DNA of 47,201 nt. Origin: Bdellovibrionota bacterium. Its GTDB lineage: Bacteria; Bdellovibrionota; UBA2394. Below the pieces are notes generated by a model that saw nothing but the letters and a program-made list of their open reading frames with translations, was not told the DNA's origin and ran no database searches. This document shows, in pieces, positions 16,768 to 47,201 of the stretch (its first letter is position 1; every line of letters begins with the position of its first letter). Made by a program: the position numbers and the translations under genes. The stretch is from assembly GCA_049436045.1 (NCBI GenBank), contig JBMTHG010000002.1, positions 1-47,201 on the forward strand. Reading direction: 5' to 3'.

Positions 16768-17547
16768 ATGAAAGAGATCTCGATCGTTTCATGGAATATC
16801 AATGGGTTGCGAGCCGTTTTAAAGAAAGGCCTGAACGACTTTCTTGAGCAGCGAAAGCCAGATGTTGTTTGCTTGCAAGAGATTAAATGCTTTGAAAATC
16901 AGTTAGATGAAAAAGAGAAGTCGGAGCTCGAACAAGCTTATCAGCTTTATTGGCATCCTGCCGAGCGCCCCGGATACAGCGGTGTGATGAGTCTTGATCG
17001 AGGATTGGTCAAAGGCACTCAATTTGGTTTTGGCCTCAAAAAATTTGATTCTGAGGGGCGCGTGCTCATTCATGATTTCGGCGATTTTGAGCTTTTGAAT
17101 TGCTATTTTCCAAATGGTGGAGCGAGTGAAGAGAGACATTTTTTTAAAATGGATTTTCTGAAAGAATTTCTTCAATTCCTAAAAAAGCGGCAGAAAGAAA
17201 AGCCTTTGATTGTGACGGGCGATATCAATATCGCTCACAAAGAAATAGATATTCATGATCCTGTTAGACTGGATGGTGAGAGCGGATTTAAACCTGAGGA
17301 GAGGGCTTGGATGGATGAATTGCACGCTGCAGGTTTTCAAGACGTCTTTCGTCATTTTTTTCCTGACCAGCAAGATGAGTATAGTTGGTGGTCTTATCGG
17401 GCGGGTGCACGTCAAAGAAATAAAGGCTGGAGAATCGATTATTTCATCGCTTCAAATCAGATCTTAGATCGAGTTTCTTCGATTCAGCATTTGCCTAAGA
17501 TTCTAGGTTCAGATCATTGCCCTTTAGAGCTAAAAATTCAGGTCTAG
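16768..17547 (+). CDS. xthA: Exodeoxyribonuclease III (AP endonuclease)
   Basis: VSWNINGLRA, CLQEIK, GDINIAH, WSYR...GWRIDY and SDHCPL motifs. Confidence 0.9.
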   Translation: MKEISIVSWNINGLRAVLKKGLNDFLEQRKPDVVCLQEIKCFENQLDEKEKSELEQAYQLYWHPAERPGYSGVMSLDRGLVKGTQFGFGLKKFDSEGRVLIHDFGDFELLNCYFPNGGASEERHFFKMDFLKEFLQFLKKRQKEKPLIVTGDINIAHKEIDIHDPVRLDGESGFKPEERAWMDELHAAGFQDVFRHFFPDQQDEYSWWSYRAGARQRNKGWRIDYFIASNQILDRVSSIQHLPKILGSDHCPLELKIQV

Positions 17548-19049
17548 GCTTTGAAGGCGTCGGCTTCAGGCAATGAGTTTTCTTGATATTCTTTGCCATC
17601 AAAGCTCAAAAGTCGGAATTGATTTTGAATATTCGTTTGAATATGAACCGGTCTCTTCCAGCACTTTTGAAGGTGCATGAGGGTATCTTTGGCCTTTGCC
17701 AACTGAATCTCACTCGCTTCATAGCGATGCCAAAGATAAAGCTCACCACGATTTTTATAATTGGCATCGACAACGAAAATTCGAGGGTGCCCTCGATTCG
17801 TGAGTTGAAATAAAAGCTGTTGCTTTATTTTTTCAAACTCGCGGGATGCAATTTCATACTCATCCGACTTGGGGTTTTTCTGAAAAGTAAAGAGCTTGTG
17901 TTCGGCGCAAAACTCTGGCGTTAAAAATTCGTCGATAAACATCACATCATTATAGACTTTTCTGACTTCAAAAATCTTTTGTCTTCCAAGCCCTAGATTT
18001 TTATTCCAAGATTTCTTTTCTGTCAGGTTTGGGCAGTTATCATATTCAAGACCAAATTTTCCAGTATTCCATCTCTCTTCAATATCTCTGAAGAGTTCAA
18101 TTCCAATCTTATAAGGATTAAATCTTCCTCCCGCCATCGACACTGTTCCGGCATGAGAGTTGGCATAGTCGATAATTTCAGAATCTTCTAATTTATGCCG
18201 AGTCATGATGTGAGAGTGCCAATAACTTGCCCAGCCCTCGTTCATGATTTTCGTCTGCGCCTGAGGAAGAAAATAATAAGCTTCTTCGCGAATGATCTCT
18301 AGAGTCTCTCTTTCCCAGTTTTCTAGTGGGGCATATTGAATCAAAAATCCAAGAATATCTTGATCAGGTTTTTCAGGAATTCTTTTTTGTTTTTCAAGGG
18401 CATCGATGAGCTTTTGTTTTTGCTGCTCAAGAAACTCAGGTGGATTGATGAACTTATCCATATAATCTTTTGATTTAAGTTTTCCTGGACTAAGACGAGA
18501 TGGATCAATTTCAAAGTTTTCTGGCATGGCACTTGCGATCTTGCCAAAGCGCGCATCTGGATCAATGAGATTATCGATCGAGAGGCAGACATCAATAAAA
18601 GACTCAACACGCTCAACGCCGAGGCGCTCCATAAAACGGCGAATCTTCACACCATGATTTGCCATCATATCGACAGCTTTTCGGTGAGTGTGAGAGAAAA
18701 ACATATTGTTCTTAAAAAAATCAGCGTGTCCATAAACATGAGCCATCACCAATTTTTGATCCATCGTAGTGTTGCCCTTCATCAAATAGGCAATGACAGG
18801 ATCATTGTTGATCACCATTTCATAAATTTTCGAGAGCCCGTAGTTGTAGCTTTTTGAGAGGCGTTCGTAGTCCATTCCAAATGACCAATGAGGATATCGA
18901 TTCGGAAAACCGCCATAAGCGGCCAGCTGATTCATTTCATCGTAATCAACGATTTCAAAAATTGTAGTGTAAAAATCTAGACCATAAGAGACGGCGATTT
19001 TTTCAATCTCTTCTTTGTGCTGTGCAAGTTCTAGAGGCAGATCAGCCAT
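17544..19049 (-). CDS. spoVR: SpoVR/YcgB family protein
   Basis: [38 protein letters not shown]...[14 protein letters not shown] is the SpoVR family core. It is the third gene of the prkA-yeaH-spoVR triad. Confidence 0.9.
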
Positions 19050-19094
19050 AACTTATTTTATCGTGAATTTCTTAAAGCGTCGACCTGAAGGCCA

Positions 19095-20213
19095 TTAATA
19101 ACCTTTATTTAAGAACTCTTTAATCGAGTCGTAGATGGCCTCTTTGTTGGGAATCCTAGACGCAATGATTCTTTCGGCTGAGGCCTCTTTGCTGAAATGC
19201 TCCGTCAGATCTCTGAAAAATTGCCCGCTTCCATAGAGACTCTCGACTTGACCGTAGCAGAACATATTGACCTTAGGCAGAATCTTGTCTTTCAAAAGAT
19301 GAAAGCACTTTTGAGAATCATCAGCGCTCCAATTGTCGCCATCTGAGAAGTGAAAGGGGTAGATATTCCACTCTTGCGGAGGAAAGTGTTTCTCAATCAT
19401 TTCTAAACAGAGCTGATAGGCTGAAGAAATGATCGTTCCTCCTGATTCTCGGGTTGAGAAAAAAGTCTCTCGATCAACCTCATGAGCGGCAGCATCGTGA
19501 ATAATGTATCGAGTTTGAATCCCTTTATATTGAGATCTCAGCCATGTATCGATCCAGAATGACTCTGCGCGTACGATTTCTTTTTGCTCGTCGCCCATAG
19601 AGCCTGAAACGTCCATCATAAAAATAATAACGGCAGAGTTGTTCTCAACAGGCTTAATTTTATAAGACCGATAACGAAAGTCTCGAGATTGGGGAATGAT
19701 TCGCGGATCTTCTTGATCGTAGTCTCCCATGCTGATGTTTCTCTTTAAGGCCTCTTTATAAGTGCGTTTGAAATGAAGAAGAGATTTAGGCCCCAGCTGA
19801 TGAATCGAGTTGTATTTTGTTCTCTCAGCAAGAATATTTTTATCACCCCGCGGCTGAATTCGTGGAAGGCCAAGTTCTGTTCCTAGAATTTCAGCCATCT
19901 CTTCAAAGCTGATGTCGACCTCTTGAATGTGAGCTCCAGGGGTGTTGCCCGCTTGGCCAGCACCATCTTGCGGATCTCCGGCCTGGCCCAGCGAATCGCC
20001 CTCTTTTCCATCGCCAGCTCCAACTCCTTGTTGATCATTTTTGCCAAACTCAAAGTGGGGGAGATCAATGCTCGGAACAGGAATGCTGATGTATTCTTTG
20101 CCTTTTACGCCGAGCATTTCGCCATGAGAAATATACTTTCGCAGATCTTTTTTGATCTTGCCTTTGATGATATTTCTAAAGCGAGCGTGATCGCTGTTGA
20201 TTTTTAAAAACAT
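19095..20213 (-). CDS. yeaH: YeaH/YhbH family protein (DUF444, vWA-like)
   Basis: N-terminal [18 protein letters not shown], a Gly/Asp-rich linker, and the MIDAS-like FMMDVSGSM motif. It starts 8 nt after the prkA stop. Confidence 0.85.
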
Positions 20214-20221
20214 GATTTCGT

Positions 20222-22315
20222 CTACGATTTATCTCTGACGTCTCCCCGAGCAAAAATAGAAGCCACAAAGTTAAGCACATCGGTAGCGCTTTCGTCACTG
20301 TATCCGAAGTTCTTCACTAATCGTGATTTAACAACGTCTATTTTTTCTTGGGTCTCTTTATCTACGACATTTGAAACTAAGCTTGTGAGCTTGATCGAAT
20401 CTTTTTGATCTTCAAAGAGTTTCAATTCAAGCGCCTTATGAAGCCTCTCATTTGTTTTGTAGTTAAAAGTTTTTCCATCAACGGCGAGAGCTCCGATGTA
20501 GTTCATGATTTCTCGTCTGAAGTCATCTTTTCTTGAATCTGGAATATCTATTTTCTCTTCGATGCTTCTCATGAGCTTTTCGTCTGGCTCTTCATATTGA
20601 CCCGTGAATTTATTTTTCACTTTTTCTTTCTGAGTATAGGCCTTCACAGCATCAATATAATTGGCACAAAGTTTTGTGATCGAGTCTTCATCGGCCGAAA
20701 TCGCTCTTTGAACCTCGTTTTTTACAATATCTTCATATTCACTTCTCACGATGCCGAGCAATTCTCGATAGCGCTTTTTGATTTCTTCATTCGAAATTAG
20801 CGAGTGAGCTTTTAAGCCACCTTCGAGTTCATTGAGAACCATGAAAGGGTTAATCGACTGAGCTTCATTTGAAACTAAAGCGTTTGAAATCTTATCTTGA
20901 ATATATCGAGGTGAGATTCCTTCAAGCGCTTCTCTTTTAACCTCTTTTCGAAGCTCTTTGATGTTGTCTTCGGTGAATCCTGGAAGAGTTTTGCCATCAT
21001 AGAGTTTGAGTTTTTGAATCAAGCTTAGATTAGCTTTGCTTGGCTCCTCAAGACGGGTGAGTACGGCCCACATCGCTGCCATCTCTAAAGTGTGAGGAGC
21101 GATATGTTTTCCTTTTACACGAACTTCATTGTAATCTTTTTTGTAGATCTTGATCTCCTCATTCCACTTGGTGATGTAGGGGATATCAATCTTCACCGTT
21201 CGATCGCGAAGTGCTTCCATGAATTCATTGTTTTGCAGTTTTCGATATTCCGGCTCATTCGTATGGCCGATGATCACTTCATCAATGTCGGTTTGAGGAA
21301 ACTTCTTTGGCTTGATTTTGTGTTCTTGCGAAGCGCCTAACAGATCATACAAGAAGGCTACATCTAGCTTTAGAACTTCAATAAACTCAATCAATCCACG
21401 ATTGGCCACGTTGAATTCGCCATCAAAATTAAAGGCTCTCGGGTCAGAGTCACTTCCGAAAAGAGCGATTTTTCTGTAGTTTAAGTCGCCCGTGAGCTCT
21501 GTGGAGTCTTGATTCTTCTCATCTTTGGGTTGAAAAGTCGCAATTCCGCTTCGTTTCTTTTCAGAGAGCTCAAGACGACGAATTCTCACATTTTCTAAAA
21601 CTTTTCGATAATCGCCGCCGTAGTGCTCTAAAAGCACTTGATAAATGAATCGACAAAATGGATTAAGTTCTCCCTCAATTCGAATCTTGTCTTCAGCAGC
21701 TCGATCTTTATTGAGGGTGTTAAGAACCTCAGCACGAACTTCTGGTGGCAAAAGCTTTAAGGGCTCTTCGTTCATGGGGCTTTGTGCTTCTAAGACACCT
21801 TCACCAAAAATGGGTTTGCCCTCAAAATAAATGGGTTCTTTGAGAACCCAGCTGTAGGTGAAAAGTCGACCAGCTTGAGTTTTTGAATAATGCTCCATTC
21901 CCTTTTTCAAAAGTCTTACGATCGTCGATTTTGAGCTGCCGACTGGACCATGAAGCAAAATCACTCGTCGCTCGGGGCCGTATCCTTTTGCGGCCGCTTT
22001 TAAAACGCTCACGAGTTTCATCAACGGCAAATCAAGACCAAAGATGGCGTCTCTGCCGTGATCGATCGGATCATCAAAAAAATTATAATGAATAATAGGC
22101 TTCTTGGCGTCGATGTACTCGCGGGTTCCGTAAGACATAATCATGTCATAGAGACGTTGATGAGCATTGCGGGCGATGCCGGGCTCTTCTTCAATCAGCT
22201 TTAGATAATCCCAAAAACTTCCCGTCCAATTCATCTCACGATAGACATCGAGATGTTTGGGATCAGATAGAATTGATTCAATTCGGGATTGAAGACCAGA
22301 GTCGCCTCTTTGCAT
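20222..22315 (-). CDS. prkA: PrkA/YeaG family serine protein kinase (AAA+ N-terminal domain)
   Basis: Walker [13 protein letters not shown], at the typical ~650-700 aa length. The PrkA C-terminal region is conserved, and the gene has the expected synteny with yeaH and spoVR. Confidence 0.92.
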
Positions 22316-23588: not shown

Positions 23589-24945
23589 ATCCTGCGCGAT
23601 TGCCCTCGCCACTAAAGCTTTTTGATAGGTCTTCAAATCGGTAGCCGAGAATAATCTCCTGATCTTTTAAGCCGAGGCTTTTTAAATCCCAGGCCAGACT
23701 TCCACCATACTGAAGAAGCATTTTTTGAGAATTGGGAGTTCCGGTTTGAATGATACCCTGTTCCGTTGATTGAAGTGGACCTTCACTAAATTGATAAAAC
23801 AATAGAAGACCCAAATATCCCTGAAGGCTTAAGAAATAGGGGGATTGCAGTTTCGGACGAAAGGCAATCTCGCCGTAATAGCCAATATTGCTGAACAAAA
23901 TTGGCTGAGCGAGATTTTTATCTCTGAGCTGATTCACGCTAAAAAGATGCCACTGAAATCGAGCCGCTAGTTCAGGCTGAAGAAGCCACTTTTTGATTTG
24001 AAAATCGCGTGAAGCAAAAATTTCGACAGACAAGCGGTGCCATTGGGCTAAAGCATCAGCCGCCTCAATTTGGGCATTATTTCTTTTCACATCAGCTTGA
24101 AGAGCGCTGACCTCATATTGAGCACGCGCCCCCGCATCGACAGAGCCAAACCATCTCCGAAAAATCGAAAACCCAAACTGAAGGTCGATTCCTTCTAAAC
24201 TATAATCGATCAATGGAATGTTGGGGTAAGCCCCACCAACCAAAGTAAAAACTCGCTCTTGATATTGTTGCCAGCCCAGATCAAATTCTAGGGAATACTT
24301 CCACTCCTCAGGTGACTTTGTTTTTTCTGTCACAGACTCGGTGGGAGTGGTTATGAGTTCAAGGCTATCTACTTTTTTTAAAGTGGCGGGAATCTCAATT
24401 CGCTGCTGACTTTTTTGGTCTTCGAGCTCTAAGGCTTCGGTTTGAACAGCTTCTCGTTCGAGCGAAGGGGTATAAGACTGTTCGGTCGATCGCGAAACCT
24501 CTGTTTGTGAGCTAAGATCGCCTAAATACTCTTTTCTGATAAAGCCTTTAATAGGGTATTGATTCTCAAGAAAATACTCGACTTGAAAAAATTCTGCTTC
24601 CTCTCCAAGCACTTTTAGTTTGTCGGCTTGTCGAACCAGCAAGAGCACGCGAGCCTCATTACTGGGTTGGGCTAAAATCTGAGCGACCCGACTTTTGATC
24701 TGAGTTTCAAAGGGAAAGCTTAAGATTGGGGCGCTCTCTTGAGATTCCATTTTTGTTTCAGCAGCCTCAGTTTGAACAGCAGCCGACTCTTCAGAGGGCG
24801 ACGGTTCCTCTTTAGAAGATGGTTCCTCTACGGAAGATGGCTCCTCCACGACGAAAACAGTTTCGGCGAAACTTAAACTAGAAGCGATAATCAAAGCGAA
24901 GCAACAGTGAATGTATAAAAATAGTTTTTTCAAGAGATGCATCAT
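23518..24945 (-). CDS. Secreted composite protein (called OMP-1 here): acidic Pro/Ser/Glu repeat, SH3-like domain, C-terminal outer-membrane beta-barrel
   Basis: Signal peptide LLKKLFLYIHCCFALIIASSLSFA/ETV. A tandem VEEPSS/VEEPSS/KEEPSPSEES repeat follows. The SH3b-like stretch is RVAQILAQPSNEARVLLLVRQADKLKVLGEEAEFFQVEY...KGFIRKEYL. The last ~260 aa are strand-rich and end in LSLGYRFDF (terminal Phe). The start is ATG 24945 or 24942; the ORF track gives GTG 24951. Confidence 0.6.
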   Translation of the reverse strand: MMHLLKKLFLYIHCCFALIIASSLSFAETVFVVEEPSSVEEPSSKEEPSPSEESAAVQTEAAETKMESQESAPILSFPFETQIKSRVAQILAQPSNEARVLLLVRQADKLKVLGEEAEFFQVEYFLENQYPIKGFIRKEYLGDLSSQTEVSRSTEQSYTPSLEREAVQTEALELEDQKSQQRIEIPATLKKVDSLELITTPTESVTEKTKSPEEWKYSLEFDLGWQQYQERVFTLVGGAYPNIPLIDYSLEGIDLQFGFSIFRRWFGSVDAGARAQYEVSALQADVKRNNAQIEAADALAQWHRLSVEIFASRDFQIKKWLLQPELAARFQWHLFSVNQLRDKNLAQPILFSNIGYYGEIAFRPKLQSPYFLSLQGYLGLLLFYQFSEGPLQSTEQGIIQTGTPNSQKMLLQYGGSLAWDLKSLGLKDQEIILGYRFEDLSKSFSGEGNRAGFKLQEAQSKSKIHRLSLGYRFDF

Positions 24946-26509
24946 CCTCACTCATGAAATCATAGCCAATTTGGCCCGAGATATTCGAGCGAAAACGATA
25001 AGAAAGGCTTAAATTTGCATAAAAATCTAAAGACTTTACCCGAATGGGATCTTGCGAGGAGATAGAGCGTGCGATTTCACGCTGACTTCTAAAGAATTGA
25101 AAGTTGCCCTCGATGAAGTATTTCTCATTGGGAATCCAAGAAATATTCTGATTCAGGCTATAGAAGCTGGATTGAAATCTCTTTTGATAAGAGAGGCTAG
25201 TGTCGGTGTCGATATTTTTTGGCCAATTGAGCCGAAGGCCAAGATCACCTCCATAGGCGTTTTTCTTGTTGATGAGCCCAAGATTTTCCTCTTCGGGCTC
25301 TGAGGGATCTGACTCGGGTGTTGGATTTAAAAAGATTTTATCAGAGTCAAAAGTTCGTCTTTCATAGCGCCCAGCAATATAAGGCTGAGCGAAGCGATTG
25401 ATTCGATACGAAACTTTTGTATCTACTCGGTAGCGATGAGATTGATCCAGGCGATCTCCCACTCGCTCTCTTTGAAGGCTTCCATCGTCTGTGAGGTATT
25501 GAACAGAAGAGGCTAAGAGATAGCGATCGATGCGAAATTGAGAAAGACCAAAATTTAATATCCAATTTTTGCTGGGGCGATAAAAAGCTCGCAAGCTAAG
25601 GTGGCTGCTGGATAAAGATTTATCTTTTATCGTGGGCAATTCAAGATGTGAATAATGAAAGAGACTCAGTTCAGGAATCGGAGTGAAATGGCTTCGACTA
25701 AAAAGACTAAATCGATTTAATCCGCCCTTAAAAGTTTCGACATAAAGATTTGAATCAAACAAAAATTTCACCTTTGAATCTTCAGCGAAGTCGGGAATGA
25801 AGTGAAAGGGAATGCCAAACGCAATTCTTTCATGGCTCAGATGTTTTGTGCGCGGATCAGGAGCCAAGCCAGCATAAACTCCTAAGGTCTTCGATTTTTT
25901 CTCATTCCAAGCCCAGTCTGTTCTTAAGCCATCGATGATAATGCCGCCCTCTAAAGATTGTCTTCCCAGCCTGGCCTGAAATAGCTGATTTCCCAATCGG
26001 AAGTCTTTCTCAGCGTAGAGATCGTTGAGATGAAGTCGATATTTTTTGCTTCCATAAAGAGTTCTAGAGTTCAGCAAATGAAATCTAAAATCGCCATCGA
26101 TGAAGGCTCGAAAGTAAGAGGATTTAAACTCTGCTTTTAAGCCAAGGCTTTGAAGAAGAGTGTTTCCGCTTTTAGTATCTTTTGCAGAAACTCCCTCGCC
26201 ATCAGAGCTAATGATTCGCTCAGCGATGATCTCATCGCCTTGAATGATTCTCTCAACACAGCACTGACCATCGGAGCAAGAGACATCATCTCTTTCTTTG
26301 CCATAAGCCACAAAGAGAGGTTCAAGATCGGCGATGTTCTCGGCGTCGCAGTTATCTGTGTCATAAACCTCAAGCACACTCACGCTTGCGAAATTGTCAG
26401 TGAGAAATAGCATCCAAGCGTCAGCATTTCCCTTCAAAGAATTTTCAGCCTGAAGAGGTCTGCTGAAAAGTAATCCGAAAGCGATGATCAAAAAATAAAA
26501 AAACCTCAT
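24878..26509 (-). CDS. Large predicted outer-membrane beta-barrel protein (called OMP-2 here), candidate porin partner of the multiheme cytochrome
   Basis: Signal peptide MRFFYFLIIAFGLLFSRPLQA/ENS, using ATG 26509, which overlaps the cytochrome TGA as ATGA. An N-terminal segment carries 4 Cys (CDAEN...CSDGQCC). About 430 aa of alternating amphipathic strands follow (e.g. LSLRAFYRPSKNWILNFGLSQF, YRVDTKVSYRINRF, FYANLSLSYRFRSNISGQIGYDF), ending in LLLRFDYRF. Confidence 0.65.
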   Translation of the reverse strand: MRFFYFLIIAFGLLFSRPLQAENSLKGNADAWMLFLTDNFASVSVLEVYDTDNCDAENIADLEPLFVAYGKERDDVSCSDGQCCVERIIQGDEIIAERIISSDGEGVSAKDTKSGNTLLQSLGLKAEFKSSYFRAFIDGDFRFHLLNSRTLYGSKKYRLHLNDLYAEKDFRLGNQLFQARLGRQSLEGGIIIDGLRTDWAWNEKKSKTLGVYAGLAPDPRTKHLSHERIAFGIPFHFIPDFAEDSKVKFLFDSNLYVETFKGGLNRFSLFSRSHFTPIPELSLFHYSHLELPTIKDKSLSSSHLSLRAFYRPSKNWILNFGLSQFRIDRYLLASSVQYLTDDGSLQRERVGDRLDQSHRYRVDTKVSYRINRFAQPYIAGRYERRTFDSDKIFLNPTPESDPSEPEEENLGLINKKNAYGGDLGLRLNWPKNIDTDTSLSYQKRFQSSFYSLNQNISWIPNEKYFIEGNFQFFRSQREIARSISSQDPIRVKSLDFYANLSLSYRFRSNISGQIGYDFMSEDDASLEKTIFIHSLLLRFDYRF

Positions 26510-28674
26510 GGGAGAGCACTCCCTCGCCGGATATTCCAATCAATCGGAACATGACAGTTTTCACAGTTGGCCACATTTCGGCCCGAAGCATTGCTGTGCT
26601 GAGGAATATGGGGAACAAATGAATCGGAGTGACAAAAGAAGCAATCACTTGGAAGACCTTGGTAGATATTGTTCACATGACAAGAAGAGCACTCTAGATA
26701 GCGATGAATTCCAGTGAGTCGAAAGCCCGTGGTGTTATGCTGAAAGTGAGTGGGGAGCCAAGATGTTTGATAATGGCAATCGCCGCAGGTGTTGCCCATC
26801 TGCCCCAGATGGATATCATCTTTCTCATGGCACCAGGCACAGAACTCTCCAGTGCCTTGAAGATTGTTGTTCGTCGCATGACAGTCACTACATTCGAGTT
26901 GGTCGTGAAAACCTTCTAATTTAAAAAAGCCAAGATCATGCACCTTCTCTGCGTACTCAAGCTCAAAGCTATTCGTGCTATGACAGCTTTCACAATTGCT
27001 TCCCATTTCACCCTGATGAACATCATAGTGGCAATTCACACACTCGGTGGCGAGTTTTGCGCCAGCAATAAGCTTCACTTGATAGTCGCCCAACAGATGA
27101 TTTTCGTGACACTTTTGGCATGATAGCTCTGTATGTCTTCCCGTGAGTTTCCATCTTCCGATTTCTTCGTGCTTAAAAGACTTTACTTGCTTGAAGCCTT
27201 CGGTCACGTGACAGCTTGAACATTCATTTGACATGGCAGAGCCATGAGGATCGGCATGACAGGATTGGCAATTTGGATTGTCATTATTAGCCGGCATGTT
27301 TTTAAAAACCTGATCCACATGACAAGATAAACAAGCCACTTCGCGATGCTCTCCCGTGAGCGCGAAGTCTGTATTTTTATTATGATCAAATTGAATCCAA
27401 GAAAAGCTAGTCGTCACATGACAAAAAGAGCAGCTTTGATCAATCTCACGCTCGGGGTGAACATTTCGATGACAATCAGAACATTCATCAAACTTGAGAT
27501 TGGTGTAGCTTCCGGTGAAGTGACACTGTTGACAGTCAATCACCATATGTTTTCCATCAAGCGGAAACTCAGTCTTGGCGTGGCGCTCTAGATCAAAAGA
27601 AGAATCATAAAATTTTCGAGTGGGGGAGTGACAGCTTTCGCAGCTTTGATCTGCGAATTGACCGTTGTGATAATCGCCGTGACAATCTGAGCACTGATCA
27701 AATTGATCTGCAGGAACTTTGAAACTTTTTTTGTCTTGATAATGGCAACTCTCGCACTCAACGGCTTCATGATATCCCTCTAATGGAAACTTAGTTTTGC
27801 TATGATCAAATCCATTGGCTGCGATTTGGCCCTCTAGCAAGAGATGATCCCACTTTCGATAAACGCTGTGGCAGTTTGTGCACTCATTTCCAAAGGAGCC
27901 TTTGTGAGGGTCAGAATGGCAATCGGTGCACTGATCAAACTCAAGTGGAGCGAAAGTGGTGACTCGCTTCGTTTTTGGATCGGGTTCATGACATTCGGAG
28001 CATTCTACTTTTTTGTGCAAGCCTTCAAGTTTATAGCGAGTGGTGTCGTGATTGAATGGCATTTTCTTTCTGAGGCGCTTCCAATTCTCAATTCCTGTTG
28101 AATGACACTGCGTACACTCCAAAAGCTTTTTGTCTTTGAATTCGTGTTGGTAGTCATCTTGATGACATTCATAGCAAGTGGTGGGCGCGTTGAGATACGA
28201 GCGGGTTTCTGTTTTTGCTTTCGTCTTGTAATGCTCACGATAAGTCGTGTGGCAGTCATAACATTCCGTTTTGGCGTGTTGGCCGCGAAGAGGGTAGCCT
28301 GTATCCTTTTCGTGATTAAATTCATCGAGCCAGTTTTCTGGCGCAAAAATATCAAAGTCTAAACCTTCATGCTCCATATGACATGAGGAGCATTCGGTCT
28401 TGCCGGCGTGGTAACCCCAATTTTTTTCAATTCGAACTTTTATGTCGAGGTGACAATCCATACATTTTGCATTGTCGAGGTCTCCGCCCAAGGTATTGAT
28501 GTGACAGTTTGAGCAACCTTTTAGTGTGTCATACTCGGCATGACTTTTTGAAAGAGGGCCGGGAGATTGAGTGATCAGTTTTTTTAAGAATTCCTGAGCC
28601 TCCAACTGAACGGGCAGTTGAATAAAGATCAGCGCAAAAACAATCTGAAAAAACCCTCTCATCCCCAAGTCCAT
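26506..28674 (-). CDS. Secreted multiheme c-type cytochrome with 27 CXXCH motifs (nine triheme c7/c3-like modules)
   Basis: I counted 27 CXXCH motifs in the 722-aa translation, and every Cys I can see lies in one. The signal peptide is MRGFFQIVFALIFIQLPVQLEA/QEF. The recurring module is F-x-H-x5-7-L-x-G-x-H-x3-5-CxxCH ... CxDCH-x-D-x-H-x-G-x4-6-CxxCH. The start is ATG 28674 or ATG 28662. Confidence 0.9.
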   Translation of the reverse strand: MDLGMRGFFQIVFALIFIQLPVQLEAQEFLKKLITQSPGPLSKSHAEYDTLKGCSNCHINTLGGDLDNAKCMDCHLDIKVRIEKNWGYHAGKTECSSCHMEHEGLDFDIFAPENWLDEFNHEKDTGYPLRGQHAKTECYDCHTTYREHYKTKAKTETRSYLNAPTTCYECHQDDYQHEFKDKKLLECTQCHSTGIENWKRLRKKMPFNHDTTRYKLEGLHKKVECSECHEPDPKTKRVTTFAPLEFDQCTDCHSDPHKGSFGNECTNCHSVYRKWDHLLLEGQIAANGFDHSKTKFPLEGYHEAVECESCHYQDKKSFKVPADQFDQCSDCHGDYHNGQFADQSCESCHSPTRKFYDSSFDLERHAKTEFPLDGKHMVIDCQQCHFTGSYTNLKFDECSDCHRNVHPEREIDQSCSFCHVTTSFSWIQFDHNKNTDFALTGEHREVACLSCHVDQVFKNMPANNDNPNCQSCHADPHGSAMSNECSSCHVTEGFKQVKSFKHEEIGRWKLTGRHTELSCQKCHENHLLGDYQVKLIAGAKLATECVNCHYDVHQGEMGSNCESCHSTNSFELEYAEKVHDLGFFKLEGFHDQLECSDCHATNNNLQGTGEFCAWCHEKDDIHLGQMGNTCGDCHYQTSWLPTHFQHNTTGFRLTGIHRYLECSSCHVNNIYQGLPSDCFFCHSDSFVPHIPQHSNASGRNVANCENCHVPIDWNIRRGSALP

Positions 28675-28733: not shown

Positions 28734-29381
28734 TCATGGTTTTTGCGGCGCCTGATCAAGATCGGCAAAGCTTGAGCTGAGTCTCGGTAAAAAGGGATGA
28801 ATGCTTGCACACAACTCCTTGTTAAAGGCTGTAAAACCCATTGTTGGTTTAGTTTTGAGAATCTCACTGATACTCATCCACTCCGAGCGATTCACTTTGA
28901 GCCGAATAAAAGGCACGGCTTTTTCTTCTCGCGTCCAAATGACACGAAGCTGAGCTTGAGCTGGAGTTTCATTTTGTTTGGCCTCTTCAGGAGTTTTCTC
29001 CCAATAAGGTGAAGAAGGCTTATTTTGATGCAGCAAAGCAAAAAACGAGAAATCAATTTCATCAATATCAGGATTTTCTCGAAAAGCCCGAGCAGGTGGA
29101 AGCTCTTCTCGATTTTGGCGCGGCGTGTTTTTTCCATAAAGAAAAGCGTGCAGAAATCTGCAAAAGATCTCTTGGTCTGGAATTACATTTTTTGTGACGA
29201 CGGAGTCTTCATACCAAACAGAGGTCTCCAGAACTTTTCCTTTTTTGCGAACCCCTTCTAGAGAATGCCGTCTCTCTTTGTGAAGAGAGCTAAGCGCCCA
29301 ATAGTTTGCTAGATCCTTTTTCTCTTTTGCGGAGGCCGTATTAAAAAAGACGAAAGCCAAGAGGAATACAAAGAAACGCAT
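28734..29381 (-). CDS. Hypothetical secreted protein (~215 aa)
   Basis: The ORF-track entry (28734-29453) is trimmed to ATG 29381, which gives the clean signal peptide MRFFVFLLAFVFFNTASA/KEKK. This start lies 4 nt after the stop of the upstream 65-aa ORF. No family recognised. Confidence 0.5.
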   Translation of the reverse strand: MRFFVFLLAFVFFNTASAKEKKDLANYWALSSLHKERRHSLEGVRKKGKVLETSVWYEDSVVTKNVIPDQEIFCRFLHAFLYGKNTPRQNREELPPARAFRENPDIDEIDFSFFALLHQNKPSSPYWEKTPEEAKQNETPAQAQLRVIWTREEKAVPFIRLKVNRSEWMSISEILKTKPTMGFTAFNKELCASIHPFLPRLSSSFADLDQAPQKP

Positions 29382-29385
29382 AACT

Positions 29386-29583
29386 TCATTTTGGCTGACT
29401 TTCTTTCGAGTCTCCAGAAAAAGCTTTAAATTTGTGAATTGAGTCTCGATCACGAGAAAGCTGAAAGTCTTGGAACTGTCTAATCAGTTCTAAAAGACTT
29501 GATTCAAGCTGCCAGATTTCTTGCAAAAGCTTGAGTTCTAAGCTTTCGATTTCTTCTCGCCATTCTTCACAAAGACATTTCAT
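29386..29583 (-). CDS. Small hypothetical coiled-coil protein (65 aa)
   Basis: The ATG overlaps the comM TGA (ATGA, rc of 29580-29583). A strong GGAGG SD lies 8 nt upstream. There is a heptad-like Leu/Glu pattern (EEIESLELKLLQEIWQLESSLLELIRQF). Confidence 0.4.
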   Translation of the reverse strand: MKCLCEEWREEIESLELKLLQEIWQLESSLLELIRQFQDFQLSRDRDSIHKFKAFSGDSKESQPK

Positions 29584-31010
29584 TCTCTTTCCTCCAGTTT
29601 CTCAAAAAAGTTTTTAAGATTTTGACTCTCAGTATCATTCACCTGATTGACACCAAAAAACTTAGACCACGTCAGAAGCATCTCGACCCAAAGGCGTTGC
29701 TGCCGAGCATTTTTGAAGGCCGAAAGATCAATTTCATGAAGTTGAGGTCGATTTTTTTCTGCCCATGAAAGACGTTCGCAAATTTTTTGAAACTCAAACT
29801 CGGGGGCTTGTGGCTCATCTTTGAAAGTCCACCACAAAACTCGATGAAAACGCTCGAGCAGAGGCTCAGATAGCCTCGCCTGATAAGAATAAAATTGAGC
29901 TGAGCTACAAACGCAGGCCTTTTTTGATCCATGCTTTCCGCAACGACAGGGATTCATGGCGGCAAGCAGTTGAATATCTGCCGGAAAACTTTTCTTGCCG
30001 CCTTGGCGATGGATGCAGAGTTTTTTTTCTTCGAGAGGCTCGCGAAGAGCTTCTAAAACATTGCGCTGAAACTCGGGCAATTCATCGAGAAATAAAATAC
30101 CACGATGGGCGCGGCTGATGGCTCCGGCATAGATTTGACGATGACCGCCTCCTACAATTGAAGCCGCAGAGCTTGTGTGATGAGGGGCTTCAAATCCTCT
30201 TTGAGACAAATCTTTAAATTCAAGGTTTTTAGTTTCAGCAGGAGAAGAATATTTAAACTTTTCTGACCAAAACTTTGGCGCGAGTGGCCGCTGAAGATCT
30301 TGAAGAGCATGACACCAGGAGCTCTTTCCCACGCCTGGGCTACCGTTAAGAAGAACATTCCATCGGCCTAAGCTGGCGAGCGACCAAAACAAAAATTGAT
30401 CATGGCTGCCACGCATTTTATTCCAGCGCGTTTGCAATTTTGGATCGGGCCATGACGATCGAGATAAATCAGAGCTGACTTCGATTGTAAAAGCTTCTTT
30501 TGGCTCTAAGAGCTCAGCAGCGCTATCGCAAAAATGCACTTTGCTTTTCAAGAAGGGCAGAATCTTTTCGAGATTGTTTTTGGAGTTTGAAAAAAAGATT
30601 GAATCAGCTTGGGATTCCTGAGCCAACAGAACATGGCCAAGAATCGATTCTGTTTCTCTGATTTTTCCGTTGAGCTCCAGTTCACCCCAGAAAAAATATT
30701 TTTTTTCGATAAGAGGAATGTGACCAAGTACCTGCAATATTGCATGAAAAATTCCAAGGTCTAAATGACTGCCTTCTTTTGAGAGGTCTCCCGGCTTGAG
30801 ATAAACTAAGACTTTTTGATTGGGTAATTCGATTCCCACTTGATGAAGGCTAGCCAAGATTCGATCTTTGCCCTCCCGAACCATATTTTGAGGAAGGCCA
30901 ATAATATCGAATCGGGGAAGTCCTTTTCGTAATAAAACTTGAATTTCTATTTCTTGTAAGCCATGGGAGGTGTAGCAAGTCGTCCAGGCTTGAGCGAATG
31001 ATGCAGTCAT
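29580..31010 (-). CDS. comM: YifB/ComM family Mg-chelatase-like AAA+ ATPase
   Basis: An N-terminal Lon-protease-like/ChlI domain is followed by Walker A NGSPGVGKSS, Walker B ILFLDELPEF, and the LLAAMNPCRCG motif. Confidence 0.9.
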   Translation of the reverse strand: MTASFAQAWTTCYTSHGLQEIEIQVLLRKGLPRFDIIGLPQNMVREGKDRILASLHQVGIELPNQKVLVYLKPGDLSKEGSHLDLGIFHAILQVLGHIPLIEKKYFFWGELELNGKIRETESILGHVLLAQESQADSIFFSNSKNNLEKILPFLKSKVHFCDSAAELLEPKEAFTIEVSSDLSRSSWPDPKLQTRWNKMRGSHDQFLFWSLASLGRWNVLLNGSPGVGKSSWCHALQDLQRPLAPKFWSEKFKYSSPAETKNLEFKDLSQRGFEAPHHTSSAASIVGGGHRQIYAGAISRAHRGILFLDELPEFQRNVLEALREPLEEKKLCIHRQGGKKSFPADIQLLAAMNPCRCGKHGSKKACVCSSAQFYSYQARLSEPLLERFHRVLWWTFKDEPQAPEFEFQKICERLSWAEKNRPQLHEIDLSAFKNARQQRLWVEMLLTWSKFFGVNQVNDTESQNLKNFFEKLEERE

Positions 31011-40756: not shown

Positions 40757-40925
40757 AGCTCAGATTTTGATCGAGTTTCTTTTAACTCTTGGGCCCTTGA
40801 TTTTGACTCTTATCTTATTTCAGATGGCTCACCGAGCTTTCGAGGGTGTTCGTGCAGATGCTCGAAATTATTGGGAATTTCGAAATTCGGCCGTAGGGGG
40901 TGACGAAATCAAGACTTGGAGATAA
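40737..40925 (+). CDS. Possible TadE-like mini-protein (62 aa)
   Basis: KAQILIEFLLTLGPLILTLILF resembles the TadE/pseudopilin N-terminal segment (x-x-x-x-E-F/Y plus a hydrophobic helix). It is far shorter than usual TadE proteins and overlaps the flp 3' end by 20 nt. Weak call. Confidence 0.3.
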   Translation: MISGSNKAQILIEFLLTLGPLILTLILFQMAHRAFEGVRADARNYWEFRNSAVGGDEIKTWR

Positions 40926-40938
40926 AAGCTTCCACTCT

Positions 40939-42039
40939 ATGTTGGCGAAAAATGAAGGCTCCATGGAACTCGCGTTTGAGGGCGGTTTAGCTCAGATTTT
41001 TAAAAAATCAGCCGGTGATACTTTTCGCGCTGAAAAAATACTGCTTCCTCAATATCAAGGATTGGTTGAGTTTGAAAATCTTCAAAGGCGCGAGTTTGAG
41101 ATTTTAAGCCGGCTCAATCATCCGAAAATATTAAAATGCTTTGAGCTAAACTTAGAGAGCCCAAAGCCGGGCGTTTTCACTCATGTTCTAGAATTGGAAT
41201 GGATCGAGGGCCTCTCTGTGCGAGATCTTATTTTTCAAGCGCGCTCTTGGAATTTAGAAGATCGAAAAAGTCTGGCCTTCAACTTTTTGAGACAAAGTTT
41301 AGAGATTTTTTCGTACTTAGAATCTCAGCACTTGATTCACTCTGACTTGAGTCCAGAAAATTTCATTCTCAATCGAGAGGGCAAACTTGTTTTGATCGAC
41401 TTTGCCTCTGCCTTTTTTGAAAATGATCCACCTTCAAAAAATTCAGCTCAGCTCACGGGTAAGAAAAGCTATCGAGCGCCTGAGCTACGTGAAGATGAAA
41501 GACCGACCTTTGCCGCTGAAACTTATAGTTTAGGCCGCATTTTTGAGGAGATTTTGGGACCAAAAAGTCTTCAGGATTCTCAGATCAAAAATTTGGCACA
41601 CCAACTGGTTTTTGATCGACAAGCAGTTCAGATCAATCAAATTCCTGAGGCCACCACAGATTTTTTTCAGAAAATTTTATGGAAAGACTTGAGTTCAAAA
41701 TCGCTGAAGCAGGTGACCTCTAAATTACAATCGGCAGGCTCATGGAAATGGTCATATTCTTTTTTGCCGATGATTTGGCTTTCTCTCTCAAGCCCCATCG
41801 AGATTCGAGCAGTGAGTGTGAACTCTATGCCTCCGACGACACTTTGCATCGAGGCTTTGAGTGTTTGTCATCAAGATACTCCGATAAAAAATATAAATTT
41901 AGCTCTGGGAGAATGGAGCGCAGAGTTTTTCTCAATCGGAGATCCTGATCAGAAATGGTCAAGAATTCTTAGCGTCAAACGGGATAAACCTTTGAAGTTC
42001 TTTGAAGACTTTCGCAATACTGTTAGTCTTAAAGAGTGA
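40939..42039 (+). CDS. Hanks-type Ser/Thr protein kinase-like protein (non-RD), with a C-terminal TM segment and an extracytoplasmic domain
   Basis: Subdomain equivalents are FRAEK (Lys), EFEILSRLNHPKILK (Glu), LIHSDLSPENFIL (HxD...N; HSD rather than HRD), IDFASA (DFG-like), YRAPEL (APE) and ETYSLGRIFEEIL. A hydrophobic stretch (WSYSFLPMIWLSLSS) and ~90 further aa follow. The start is ATG 40939; the ORF-track GTG 40900 is an alternative. Confidence 0.7.
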   Translation: MLAKNEGSMELAFEGGLAQIFKKSAGDTFRAEKILLPQYQGLVEFENLQRREFEILSRLNHPKILKCFELNLESPKPGVFTHVLELEWIEGLSVRDLIFQARSWNLEDRKSLAFNFLRQSLEIFSYLESQHLIHSDLSPENFILNREGKLVLIDFASAFFENDPPSKNSAQLTGKKSYRAPELREDERPTFAAETYSLGRIFEEILGPKSLQDSQIKNLAHQLVFDRQAVQINQIPEATTDFFQKILWKDLSSKSLKQVTSKLQSAGSWKWSYSFLPMIWLSLSSPIEIRAVSVNSMPPTTLCIEALSVCHQDTPIKNINLALGEWSAEFFSIGDPDQKWSRILSVKRDKPLKFFEDFRNTVSLKE

Positions 42040-42890
42040 CATCTATCATTCATCAAGATGTGAAAGACATCCGAGGTCAGTTGATTCTCAAATCCGGTTC
42101 AGATGTCATTGAGTGGTCAAAGAAAAATATTTTTTCAACGGATCACCAAAAAAAGAAGACGAAATTCAAAGAAGCCGCCTTTTTTGTAGAAGATTGTGAG
42201 AGTATTTTTGGTCTTGAGCCTTACAAACGGGTTTTAGAGAATTGGACTCCTAATTTTCGAGAGTGGCTTGGTGAAATCTGGGCGCCCTCGGTTTTATTTG
42301 AAGAGCTTCGATTGCTAAAGACCTTCGATGTTTATTCTTATCAACATGTCTTGGTGGTATCGGTGGTGGGAGCGCGACTTTTAGAGATTTGGATTGCCGC
42401 AACGCCAACCGTGAAGCGAAGTTTCATGGCTTTGGTCTTTCACCGCTTGGGCAAAACTCGTTGGATGGCGGGCCTTGCTCAGAAATCCGAGGAGCTCGAT
42501 CAGGCAGAGCGTCGAATCATTTTGGAGCAACCCCTCATTAGCTTTGTTTTAAATGCTCATTATTGGGGCGATGCCAACCATCTTTGTGCGAAAGTCGCTC
42601 TTCAGCAGCACGAAGATCGGCTCGGAAAGGGCTATCCCCTGCAGATCAAAACGAATTCCTTGGTTCTCGATGTGTTAAGAATGTTGGATCGTTTTGACGC
42701 GATGATCTCTTCTCGTCCTTTTCGTTATCAAAAGTTGAGTCCTCGGGCGGCCCTCGATGTAATCAATCAAGATGCCCAAGATGGCAAAATGGAGGCCGAT
42801 GTTCTGAGAGCCTTCACGGATCTCATTCGTAACGAAAAAATCAAAGACTATAAAAAGCTAAAATTGGGCAAGATCGGCAGACCAGAATAA
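42036..42890 (+). CDS. HD-GYP domain-like protein with a degenerate HD dyad
   Basis: Aligned by eye to the HD-GYP core: YQHVLVVSVVGARLL (first His), FHRLGK in place of LHDIGK, QQHEDRLGKGYP in place of HHExxDGSGYP (GYP retained), and LDRFDAMISSRPFRY (ADxxDA...RPY). The GTG start overlaps the kinase TGA (GTGA at 42036-42039). Confidence 0.7.
   Translation: MTSIIHQDVKDIRGQLILKSGSDVIEWSKKNIFSTDHQKKKTKFKEAAFFVEDCESIFGLEPYKRVLENWTPNFREWLGEIWAPSVLFEELRLLKTFDVYSYQHVLVVSVVGARLLEIWIAATPTVKRSFMALVFHRLGKTRWMAGLAQKSEELDQAERRIILEQPLISFVLNAHYWGDANHLCAKVALQQHEDRLGKGYPLQIKTNSLVLDVLRMLDRFDAMISSRPFRYQKLSPRAALDVINQDAQDGKMEADVLRAFTDLIRNEKIKDYKKLKLGKIGRPE

Positions 42891-46373: not shown

Positions 46374-47201
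<828 letters not shown>

Follow-up and report, generated by a model that had tools for sequence, protein, structure and literature searches.

The stretch of DNA described here, 47,201 nucleotides (nt) of a contig from an uncultured Bdellovibrionota bacterium (GCA_049436045.1, JBMTHG010000002.1; "the window" hereafter), carries on its minus strand a gene for a multiheme cytochrome of 722 amino acids (aa), followed directly by a gene for a 543-aa protein that is predicted to be an outer-membrane beta-barrel (Table 1). The plus-strand translation of the cytochrome interval is riddled with stop codons; the minus-strand product contains 27 CXXCH motifs, against a chance expectation of 0.33 calculated from its own amino-acid composition. 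All 54 of its cysteines lie inside these motifs, it has 59 histidines, and there is one heme site per 26.7 aa, a recount that agrees with the 27 motifs and roughly one site per 26 aa reported in a first-pass annotation of the same DNA. The protein contains no variant motifs of the CX3-4CH or CXXCK kind, and the GC content of the gene is 44.5%, against 43.3% for the window.

The cytochrome is secreted. Its sole hydrophobic stretch, as seen in a hydrophobicity scan, covers residues ~3-26 and leads into a predicted cleavage site between LEA and QEF, and a junction in which (A/G) is followed by Q(D/E)FLK is common to all orthologues. There is no Cys before residue 54 and therefore no lipobox, so the earlier call of an N-terminal Sec signal peptide without a lipobox stands. 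The mature protein of ~696 aa has a computed mass of ~80 kDa without hemes and ~96.5 kDa with 27.

A search of 5.8 billion proteins returned about 30 orthologue clusters with 52-81% identity and lengths of 696-769 aa, each with 27 motifs. The first-pass annotation had named a frame-breaking sequencing or assembly error as a way in which its reading could fail; the frame is intact and colinear with the 30 orthologue clusters, and the only internal repeats at the DNA level are matches of 18-28 nt over Cys-His codons. These two observations make an assembly or duplication artefact unlikely, and the shortness of the matches implies that the module repeats are ancient; recent duplication or assembly expansion of the gene, which we had considered, was rejected since there are no long DNA repeats. 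The 722-aa open reading frame (ORF) is thus a real, intact gene for a secreted cytochrome, and its product is expected to bind 27 hemes, three in each of nine repeated units, if the motifs are occupied as predicted.

Motif spacing divides the cytochrome into nine triads of 64-92 aa, which retains the nine modules of the first-pass annotation and widens the ~70-85 aa that it gave for their size. Pairwise identity among the nine is 29-46%, and their general form can be written as [F/W]..F-x-H-x(3-5)-[FYW]-x-L-x-G-x-H-x3-CxxCH-x(9-25)-CxxCH-x(3-10)-H-x(5-16)-CxxCH. The consensus previously ascribed to each module is looser than was claimed and is not literally present in every one: L-x-G-x-H is found in eight of nine, F-x-H in six and CxDCH in four. 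A His lies 4-11 residues past the second CXXCH in modules 2-9, and at +4 in four of them. Module 1 departs from this scheme: its ligand layout is NrfB/c3-like, with H45, H89 and H102 as distal His.

In the alignment of the 30 orthologue clusters all 27 CXXCH motifs are invariant, together with 28 further His, namely three per module plus H526. M460 is the sole invariant Met among the orthologues, and no Met recurs from module to module. Because so many additional His are invariant and no Met recurs per module, all 27 hemes are probably low-spin and bis-His ligated. All 27 motifs remain colinear in relatives with as little as 35-39% identity, and relatives with 30 hemes have the same 27-motif layout plus one module; a constant number of modules is consistent with a constraint on the length of the protein. 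The wider relatives comprise more than 1,700 polymer cytochromes from many phyla, which have 21-49 motifs each at a density of 23-29 aa per heme.

Searched as a whole, the cytochrome scores 97.5 bits over seven stretches against Pfam PF14522 Cytochrome_C7 (cut-off 24.8), 54.6 bits against PF02085 class III (cut-off 22.9) and 70.8 bits, also above the cut-off, against Cytochrom_c3_2. When the modules are taken singly, Cytochrome_C7 is the best Pfam family for seven of the nine, two of which (modules 2 and 3) pass its cut-off, the others scoring 11-21 bits. The best PDB match of a profile built from 59 modules is the Geobacter dodecaheme cytochrome 3OV0 (E 2e-9, ~17 bits per domain), and the second is chain A of 6R2Q, the Mtr complex (34.5 bits), a chain that we take to be the decaheme MtrA. 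This chain is labelled "Cystathionine beta-synthase" in the sequence-search table, seemingly a mistake by the depositor or in the table; in the Foldseek table 6r2q_B is listed as "Structure of the Mtr complex". With the family profile the only matches among cytochrome polymers are 3OV0 (E 3e-6, 29 bits) and its AB fragment 3OUQ, and modules 2-3 match a pair of adjacent 3OV0 domains (residues 24-170), with all six motifs in register. A hhalign comparison of the module profile with a PpcA sequence gave 26% probability, too low to assign the modules to c7 one by one. Several more specific families failed: TIGR04257 nanowire_3heme, which represents the Geobacter c7 polymers, reached 15.6 bits over two stretches (cut-off 40), TIGR03508, the DmsE/MtrA family, 38.3 bits (cut-off 192.2), and the NCBIfam models for cytochromes of the ExtN/ExtO selenite/tellurite operon and for NrfB gave weak, partial matches of at most 46 bits (cut-offs 145-640).

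The first-pass annotation had likened the protein to the c7 polymers of Geobacter sulfurreducens, which we take to be GSU1996 (3OV0, 12 hemes), GSU0592 and GSU2210 (nine domains, 27 hemes). In both, triheme modules follow one another in tandem and their CXXCH motifs are alike in order and spacing, both are secreted and soluble, and 3OV0 has a closely similar density of ~26.5 aa per heme (318 aa, 12 hemes). The ligands differ: in the 3OV0 alignments the Geobacter domains have a conserved Met ahead of the second CXXCH, whereas the window cytochrome has no recurring Met, is predicted to be all-His and has its third distal His past the second CXXCH. In the Geobacter polymers this Met ligates one heme per domain (His-Met). 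The likeness is therefore partly supported: the cytochrome is a polymer of triheme modules with c7/c3-type sequence signatures that follows the Geobacter design principle and is remotely homologous, and, given its TIGR04257 score and its lack of a recurring Met, it is not a member of the Geobacter c7-polymer family. With PpcA and the c3 cytochromes the modules share two His ahead of the first CXXCH and three hemes in ~70 aa, and they differ from them in the spacing of the leading His, which is 10-12 residues rather than 2, and in the place of the third distal His.

The TGA of the cytochrome gene overlaps the ATG of the barrel gene (ATGA; junction …CCCATGAGG…). An ORF table had placed the start of the second gene at an upstream TTG; from the ATG, the protein begins with a signal peptide, MRFFYFLIIAFGLLFSRPLQA, followed by ENS…, and it ends in …LLLRFDYRF. 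An aromatic C-terminus is typical of outer-membrane barrels. An AlphaFold2 model made from ten sequences is all-beta with ~22 long strands; its confidence is moderate (predicted local distance difference test, pLDDT, 77.6; predicted TM-score, pTM, 0.65), and the strand count is accordingly good to plus or minus two. An insert of ~75 aa with conserved Cys follows strand 1 (residues ~39-116). Foldseek comparison of the model with the PDB gave 346 matches at E<=0.001, and the best 50 of these 346 are all outer-membrane barrels, among them FimD, MOMP, AlgE, MtrB (rank 10) and TonB-dependent receptors. Ferric enterobactin receptors of the FepA/PfeA type, which are 22-stranded, give the best query-normalised TM-scores (0.44-0.46). 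Modelling thus shows the product to be an outer-membrane beta-barrel, at the confidence given above. The family is small: an exhaustive profile search of 1.84 billion representative proteins yielded 33 hits at E<=0.001 and eight at E<=1e-10, word-indexed searches, that with a nine-sequence profile included, found four proteins each, and the weak hits of the barrel profile carry no Pfam annotation.

The pairing of the two genes extends well beyond the window. The barrel gene lies directly 3' of the cytochrome gene in 14 of 14 orthologous loci that include downstream DNA, all from metagenome-assembled genomes (MAGs) of Bdellovibrionota, mostly labelled Bacteriovoracaceae, and each Bdellovibrionota locus has one cytochrome gene. 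The names and synteny of these MAGs also place the host in Bdellovibrionota and not among the relatives of Geobacter. Among more distant relatives, which belong to Myxococcota, Bradymonadia, Bacteroidota, Calditrichota and unclassified MAGs, a run of one to three polymer cytochrome genes precedes a gene for a signal-peptide protein of 440-570 aa ending in GYRF or YAYHF. Profile comparison by hhalign relates the window barrel to these proteins with 97.2% probability (E 3.7e-11, 342 columns) in one case and 96.8% (E 2e-10) in a second, and a 27-heme relative at 38% identity (locus L040) has an ATGA-type neighbour of the same kind, homologous to the barrel. The barrels of the other phyla have no Pfam or NCBIfam match, and their profile has none among PDB sequences. 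The polymer cytochromes ahead of the homologous barrels in other phyla carry 20-76 hemes. As judged from gene order and profile comparison, the cytochrome-barrel pair is conserved both within and across phyla.

Some loci of Bacteroidota-like and unclassified MAGs have three cytochrome genes and a single barrel. These are L026 (5929-13691), L025 (1929-8375) and L023 (5968-12003), whose cytochrome genes have 20+37+19 = 76, 20+31+10 and 20+25+10 CXXCH motifs and stand ahead of one homologous barrel gene. In L041, a distant 27-heme locus, a Ser/Thr kinase gene lies directly upstream of the cytochrome gene, and its likeness to the kinase of the window is probably coincidence.

Two further genes accompany the pair in the window. 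The 474-aa outer-membrane-type protein contains an acidic low-complexity stretch of the EEPSS type and has a weak match to bacterial SH3 (13.7 bits); its gene follows the barrel gene in the Bdellovibrionota clade only, and in locus L005 it is displaced by ~5 kb by a NeuB/WbqC/DegT sugar-biosynthesis cluster. The secreted ~215-aa protein has two invariant Cys and an invariant His39, and its gene, which the clusters of other phyla lack, always immediately precedes the cytochrome gene within the Bdellovibrionota clade. Neither protein has a Pfam or NCBIfam match above noise. Farther upstream come a 65-aa ORF, which looks like a coiled coil by eye, ends 4 nt before the 215-aa gene and is called as a gene of 61-71 aa in orthologous loci, and a gene for a ComM/YifB-like ATPase of the Mg-chelatase family. 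The six genes (ATPase, 65-aa ORF, 215-aa protein, cytochrome, barrel and 474-aa protein) may form a single transcription unit, as the promoter-like and terminator-like sites that were found are all weak. The 47-kb window contains no other real CXXCH gene, the only further hits being single motifs in two short ORFs, which overlap with larger genes of the opposite strand. What remains of the window is housekeeping: SecA, RpoN, GAPDH-PGK-TPI, DnaK, PolA, an AcrB-type pump, PrkA-DUF444-SpoVR and the start of a 16S rRNA gene.

Table 1. Features of the window, many of them predicted, with what supports or characterises each; module families and scores are from Pfam.
Feature	Position	Strand	Basis or remark
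722-aa 27-CXXCH cytochrome gene	26506..28674	minus	ATG start; orthologue conservation; Pfam c7, c3_2 and class III above cut-offs
Signal peptide, residues 1-26	28597..28674	minus	Hydrophobicity and orthologue junctions
Module 1, residues 36-99, hemes 1-3	28378..28569	minus	Atypical; best families NrfB-like and c3_2
Module 2, residues 100-191, hemes 4-6	28102..28377	minus	c7 27.1 bits, above the 24.8 cut-off
Module 3, residues 192-269, hemes 7-9	27868..28101	minus	c7 26.8 bits, above cut-off
Module 4, residues 270-349, hemes 10-12	27628..27867	minus	c7 16.9 bits, below cut-off
Module 5, residues 350-419, hemes 13-15	27418..27627	minus	Class III 17.9 bits, c7 11.8 bits
Module 6, residues 420-489, hemes 16-18	27208..27417	minus	c7 20.6 bits; the best conserved of the nine across orthologues
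Module 7, residues 490-565, hemes 19-21	26980..27207	minus	c7 19.5 bits; holds the extra invariant H526
Module 8, residues 566-634, hemes 22-24	26773..26979	minus	c7 16.9 bits
Module 9, residues 635-708, hemes 25-27	26551..26772	minus	Motif triad spacing; per-module Pfam scan
Conserved C-terminal tail I-x-W-x-I-R-R-G after module 9	26509-26550	minus	Orthologue comparison
543-aa predicted outer-membrane beta-barrel gene	24878..26509	minus	Signal peptide; C-terminal ...RFDYRF; AlphaFold2 and Foldseek
Second outer-membrane-type protein, 474 aa	23518..24942	minus	Signal peptide; C-terminal barrel ending YRFDF
Secreted ~215-aa protein	28734..29381	minus	59 nt upstream of the cytochrome gene; no family match
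ComM/YifB-like Mg-chelatase-family ATPase gene	29386-31010	minus	Region includes the 65-aa ORF; ATPase stop overlaps ORF start, ATGA-type
PrkA kinase / DUF444 (YeaH-like) / SpoVR-like trio	17544-22315	minus	Keeps its place with respect to the cytochrome cluster in orthologous Bdellovibrionota loci
Ser/Thr protein kinase gene overlapping an HD_5 (HD-domain) gene	40900-42890	plus	
16S rRNA gene, 5' 808 positions	46374-47201	plus	Rfam 779.6 bits; runs into the window end

Taken together, these observations lead us to favor, at odds a little better than even (a probability of roughly 0.55), a reading in which the cytochrome and the barrel are the two components of a porin-cytochrome conduit across the cell envelope of this bacterium. 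A Sec-exported cytochrome of ~96 kDa would fold as nine tandem modules of the c7/c3 kind and hold 27 bis-His hemes in one continuous chain. The translationally coupled barrel of ~22 strands would be inserted in the outer membrane and sheathe one end of this chain, so that electrons could cross the membrane there, and the remaining modules would bridge the periplasm toward a donor or acceptor in the inner membrane. Four c7 domains measure 12 nm (3 nm per c7 domain), and by analogy nine modules in an extended arrangement may reach ~25-27 nm. The layout would be that of MtoAB/PioAB or a two-gene Pcc system, with a wire some two to three times longer. The first-pass annotation had noted that nine domains end to end could span a periplasm; it had overlooked the coupled barrel gene, with which the likely role shifts from a wire or capacitor confined to that compartment to the core of a porin-cytochrome conduit.

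Several points weigh against a conduit. A complex between the two proteins is inferred, as are the redox partner and the direction in which electrons would flow. Neither an inner-membrane quinol dehydrogenase nor a surface cytochrome is encoded in the 47-kb window, and cultured Bdellovibrionota are not known for extracellular electron transfer. The barrel has no match above noise in Pfam, NCBIfam or the sequences of the PDB, MtrB/PioB (PF11854) included, and the insert after its first strand could plug the lumen. Finally, AlphaFold2 applied to the whole cytochrome, with a 30-sequence alignment and no hemes, reached a pLDDT of 37.9, which lends no confidence to an extended shape or to a c7-like fold of the modules.

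A bolder form of the conduit proposal, to which we give well under even odds, is that a single 27-heme polypeptide threads at one end through its own barrel as a wire of ~25 nm leading from the inner membrane to the cell surface, and that the pair represents an unrecognised, ancient porin-cytochrome type present in Bdellovibrionota, Myxococcota, Bacteroidota, Calditrichota and others. The cultured relatives of the Bacteriovoracaceae-like lineage are predators, and in this lineage such a wire might point to a way of life that includes extracellular electron exchange with minerals, humics or even prey cells.

The alternative that survives best, although we consider it unlikely, is a purely periplasmic carrier or "capacitor" of the kind proposed for the Geobacter c7 polymers, with the barrel an ordinary porin or a protein with some other role. 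The cytochrome has a cleavable signal peptide and neither a lipobox nor a membrane anchor, the solved structure closest to it is 3OV0, that of a periplasmic dodecaheme of Geobacter, its 27 bis-His hemes would store 27 electrons, and the cluster encodes no surface cytochrome, all of which suit a soluble carrier. Against this reading stand the ATGA coupling, the cytochrome-barrel pair found in all 14 loci and a barrel family as small and specific as the 33 hits indicate. Moreover, a homologous barrel is kept beside polymer cytochromes in several other phyla, and a functionally unrelated barrel is hard to reconcile with this.

Quite improbable, in our estimation, is a second alternative, in which the barrel is a pore for export or assembly through which the cytochrome passes, to be exposed on the surface or set free and to serve there as an extracellular wire or as a soluble oxidase or reductase. 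The top Foldseek matches include the usher FimD and the exporter AlgE, the 474-aa outer-membrane protein and the secreted 215-aa protein could be assembly factors, and one barrel gene stands behind several large cytochrome genes in other phyla. The TM-scores are low (0.3-0.46), however, and scattered over the classes of barrels with no specific usher-like fold, plug or chaperone domains of the usher type were not detected in Pfam and NCBIfam scans, and a simple barrel pore would be ill suited to passing a folded 27-heme cytochrome. A catalytic multiheme enzyme acting on an oxyanion, metal or sulfur compound as a reductase, rather than a wire, is very improbable and was rejected: the partial matches to the ExtN/ExtO-operon cytochromes and NrfB that suggest it fall far under their cut-offs, every heme has a conserved distal His with no obvious open coordination site, there is no CXXCK or other unusual motif, and 26.7 aa per heme is too little to accommodate a substrate pocket.

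Should the two genes function as a pair, they would define a widespread type of trans-envelope electron conduit that is annotated in no database, the cytochromes being labelled "hypothetical" or "cytochrome c3 family". In this type a single protein would stand in for the periplasmic shuttle and the trans-membrane decaheme of Mtr/Pcc systems, and perhaps for their surface cytochrome too. Candidate extracellular electron transfer would then extend to Bdellovibrionota from groundwater, lakes and bioreactors, and the pair would provide a marker for metagenomic surveys. The constancy of 27 hemes down to 35% identity also suggests a testable idea, that of a "molecular ruler" for the width of the periplasm. 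The principle is not new, as porin-cytochrome clusters with very heme-rich periplasmic partners have been described from genomes since 2014-2017, and the cytochrome-barrel family itself may already have been noted in some metagenomic survey.

Compared with the Geobacter c7 polymers, the window cytochrome is set apart not only by its ligands but also by its occurrence in Bdellovibrionota and by its coupling to a dedicated outer-membrane barrel, and it is this coupling that invites comparison with the porin-cytochrome (PCC) systems. The common feature of PCC clusters is a porin gene that co-occurs with a gene for a periplasmic multiheme cytochrome (PMC4245776, PMC5566968), and the window pair, a barrel gene beside a multiheme cytochrome gene, has this arrangement. 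Most, but not all, such clusters (of the OmaB-OmbB-OmcB and MtrCAB type) also encode a multiheme lipoprotein cytochrome of the outer surface, and in this the window cluster, which has no such gene, differs from them. Two-gene pcc clusters without a surface cytochrome exist in Anaeromyxobacter and Ca. Kuenenia, and MtrAB by itself carries electrons through a bilayer (PMC4245776). The pair resembles these two-gene clusters and MtoAB/PioAB in that the cytochrome gene adjoins the barrel gene and no surface cytochrome gene is present, and the ~22 predicted strands of the barrel fall within the 18-22 predicted for Pcc porins (PMC4245776). There is likeness to the Mtr proteins as well, the module profile matching MtrA and MtrB standing among the best 50 Foldseek matches. 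On the other hand, the order of the genes differs, with the cytochrome first and the barrel second in the window, and so does the size of the cytochrome: MtrA, MtoA and PioA have 10 hemes, as compared with 27 hemes in 722 aa here, and the periplasmic cytochromes of Pcc systems have 5-14 hemes in at most 400 aa (PMC4245776).

A parallel for so many hemes is PCC3, described in Proteobacteria by He et al. (2017), whose periplasmic cytochromes have a median of 21 hemes and of 26 aa per heme and are regarded as wires able to span the periplasm, a value of ~26 being taken as the mark of wire-like cytochromes that could span it (PMC5566968). The heme density of the window cytochrome is that of such wire-like proteins, and both systems combine a porin with a very heme-rich periplasmic cytochrome built of repeats; a span from membrane to membrane was proposed for PCC3. 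PCC3 also includes an extracellular cytochrome (median 34 hemes), a conserved inner-membrane protein of ~300 aa and porins of up to 42 predicted strands (PMC5566968), and, judged by that published description, the window cluster is distinguished from it by having no extracellular cytochrome, multi-pass membrane protein or 42-strand porin. The pair fits the general definition of a PCC system while differing from each type described, in that it would combine, with neither a surface cytochrome nor a conserved inner-membrane protein, 27 hemes in triheme c7-like modules, an unannotated barrel family and a new host phylum.

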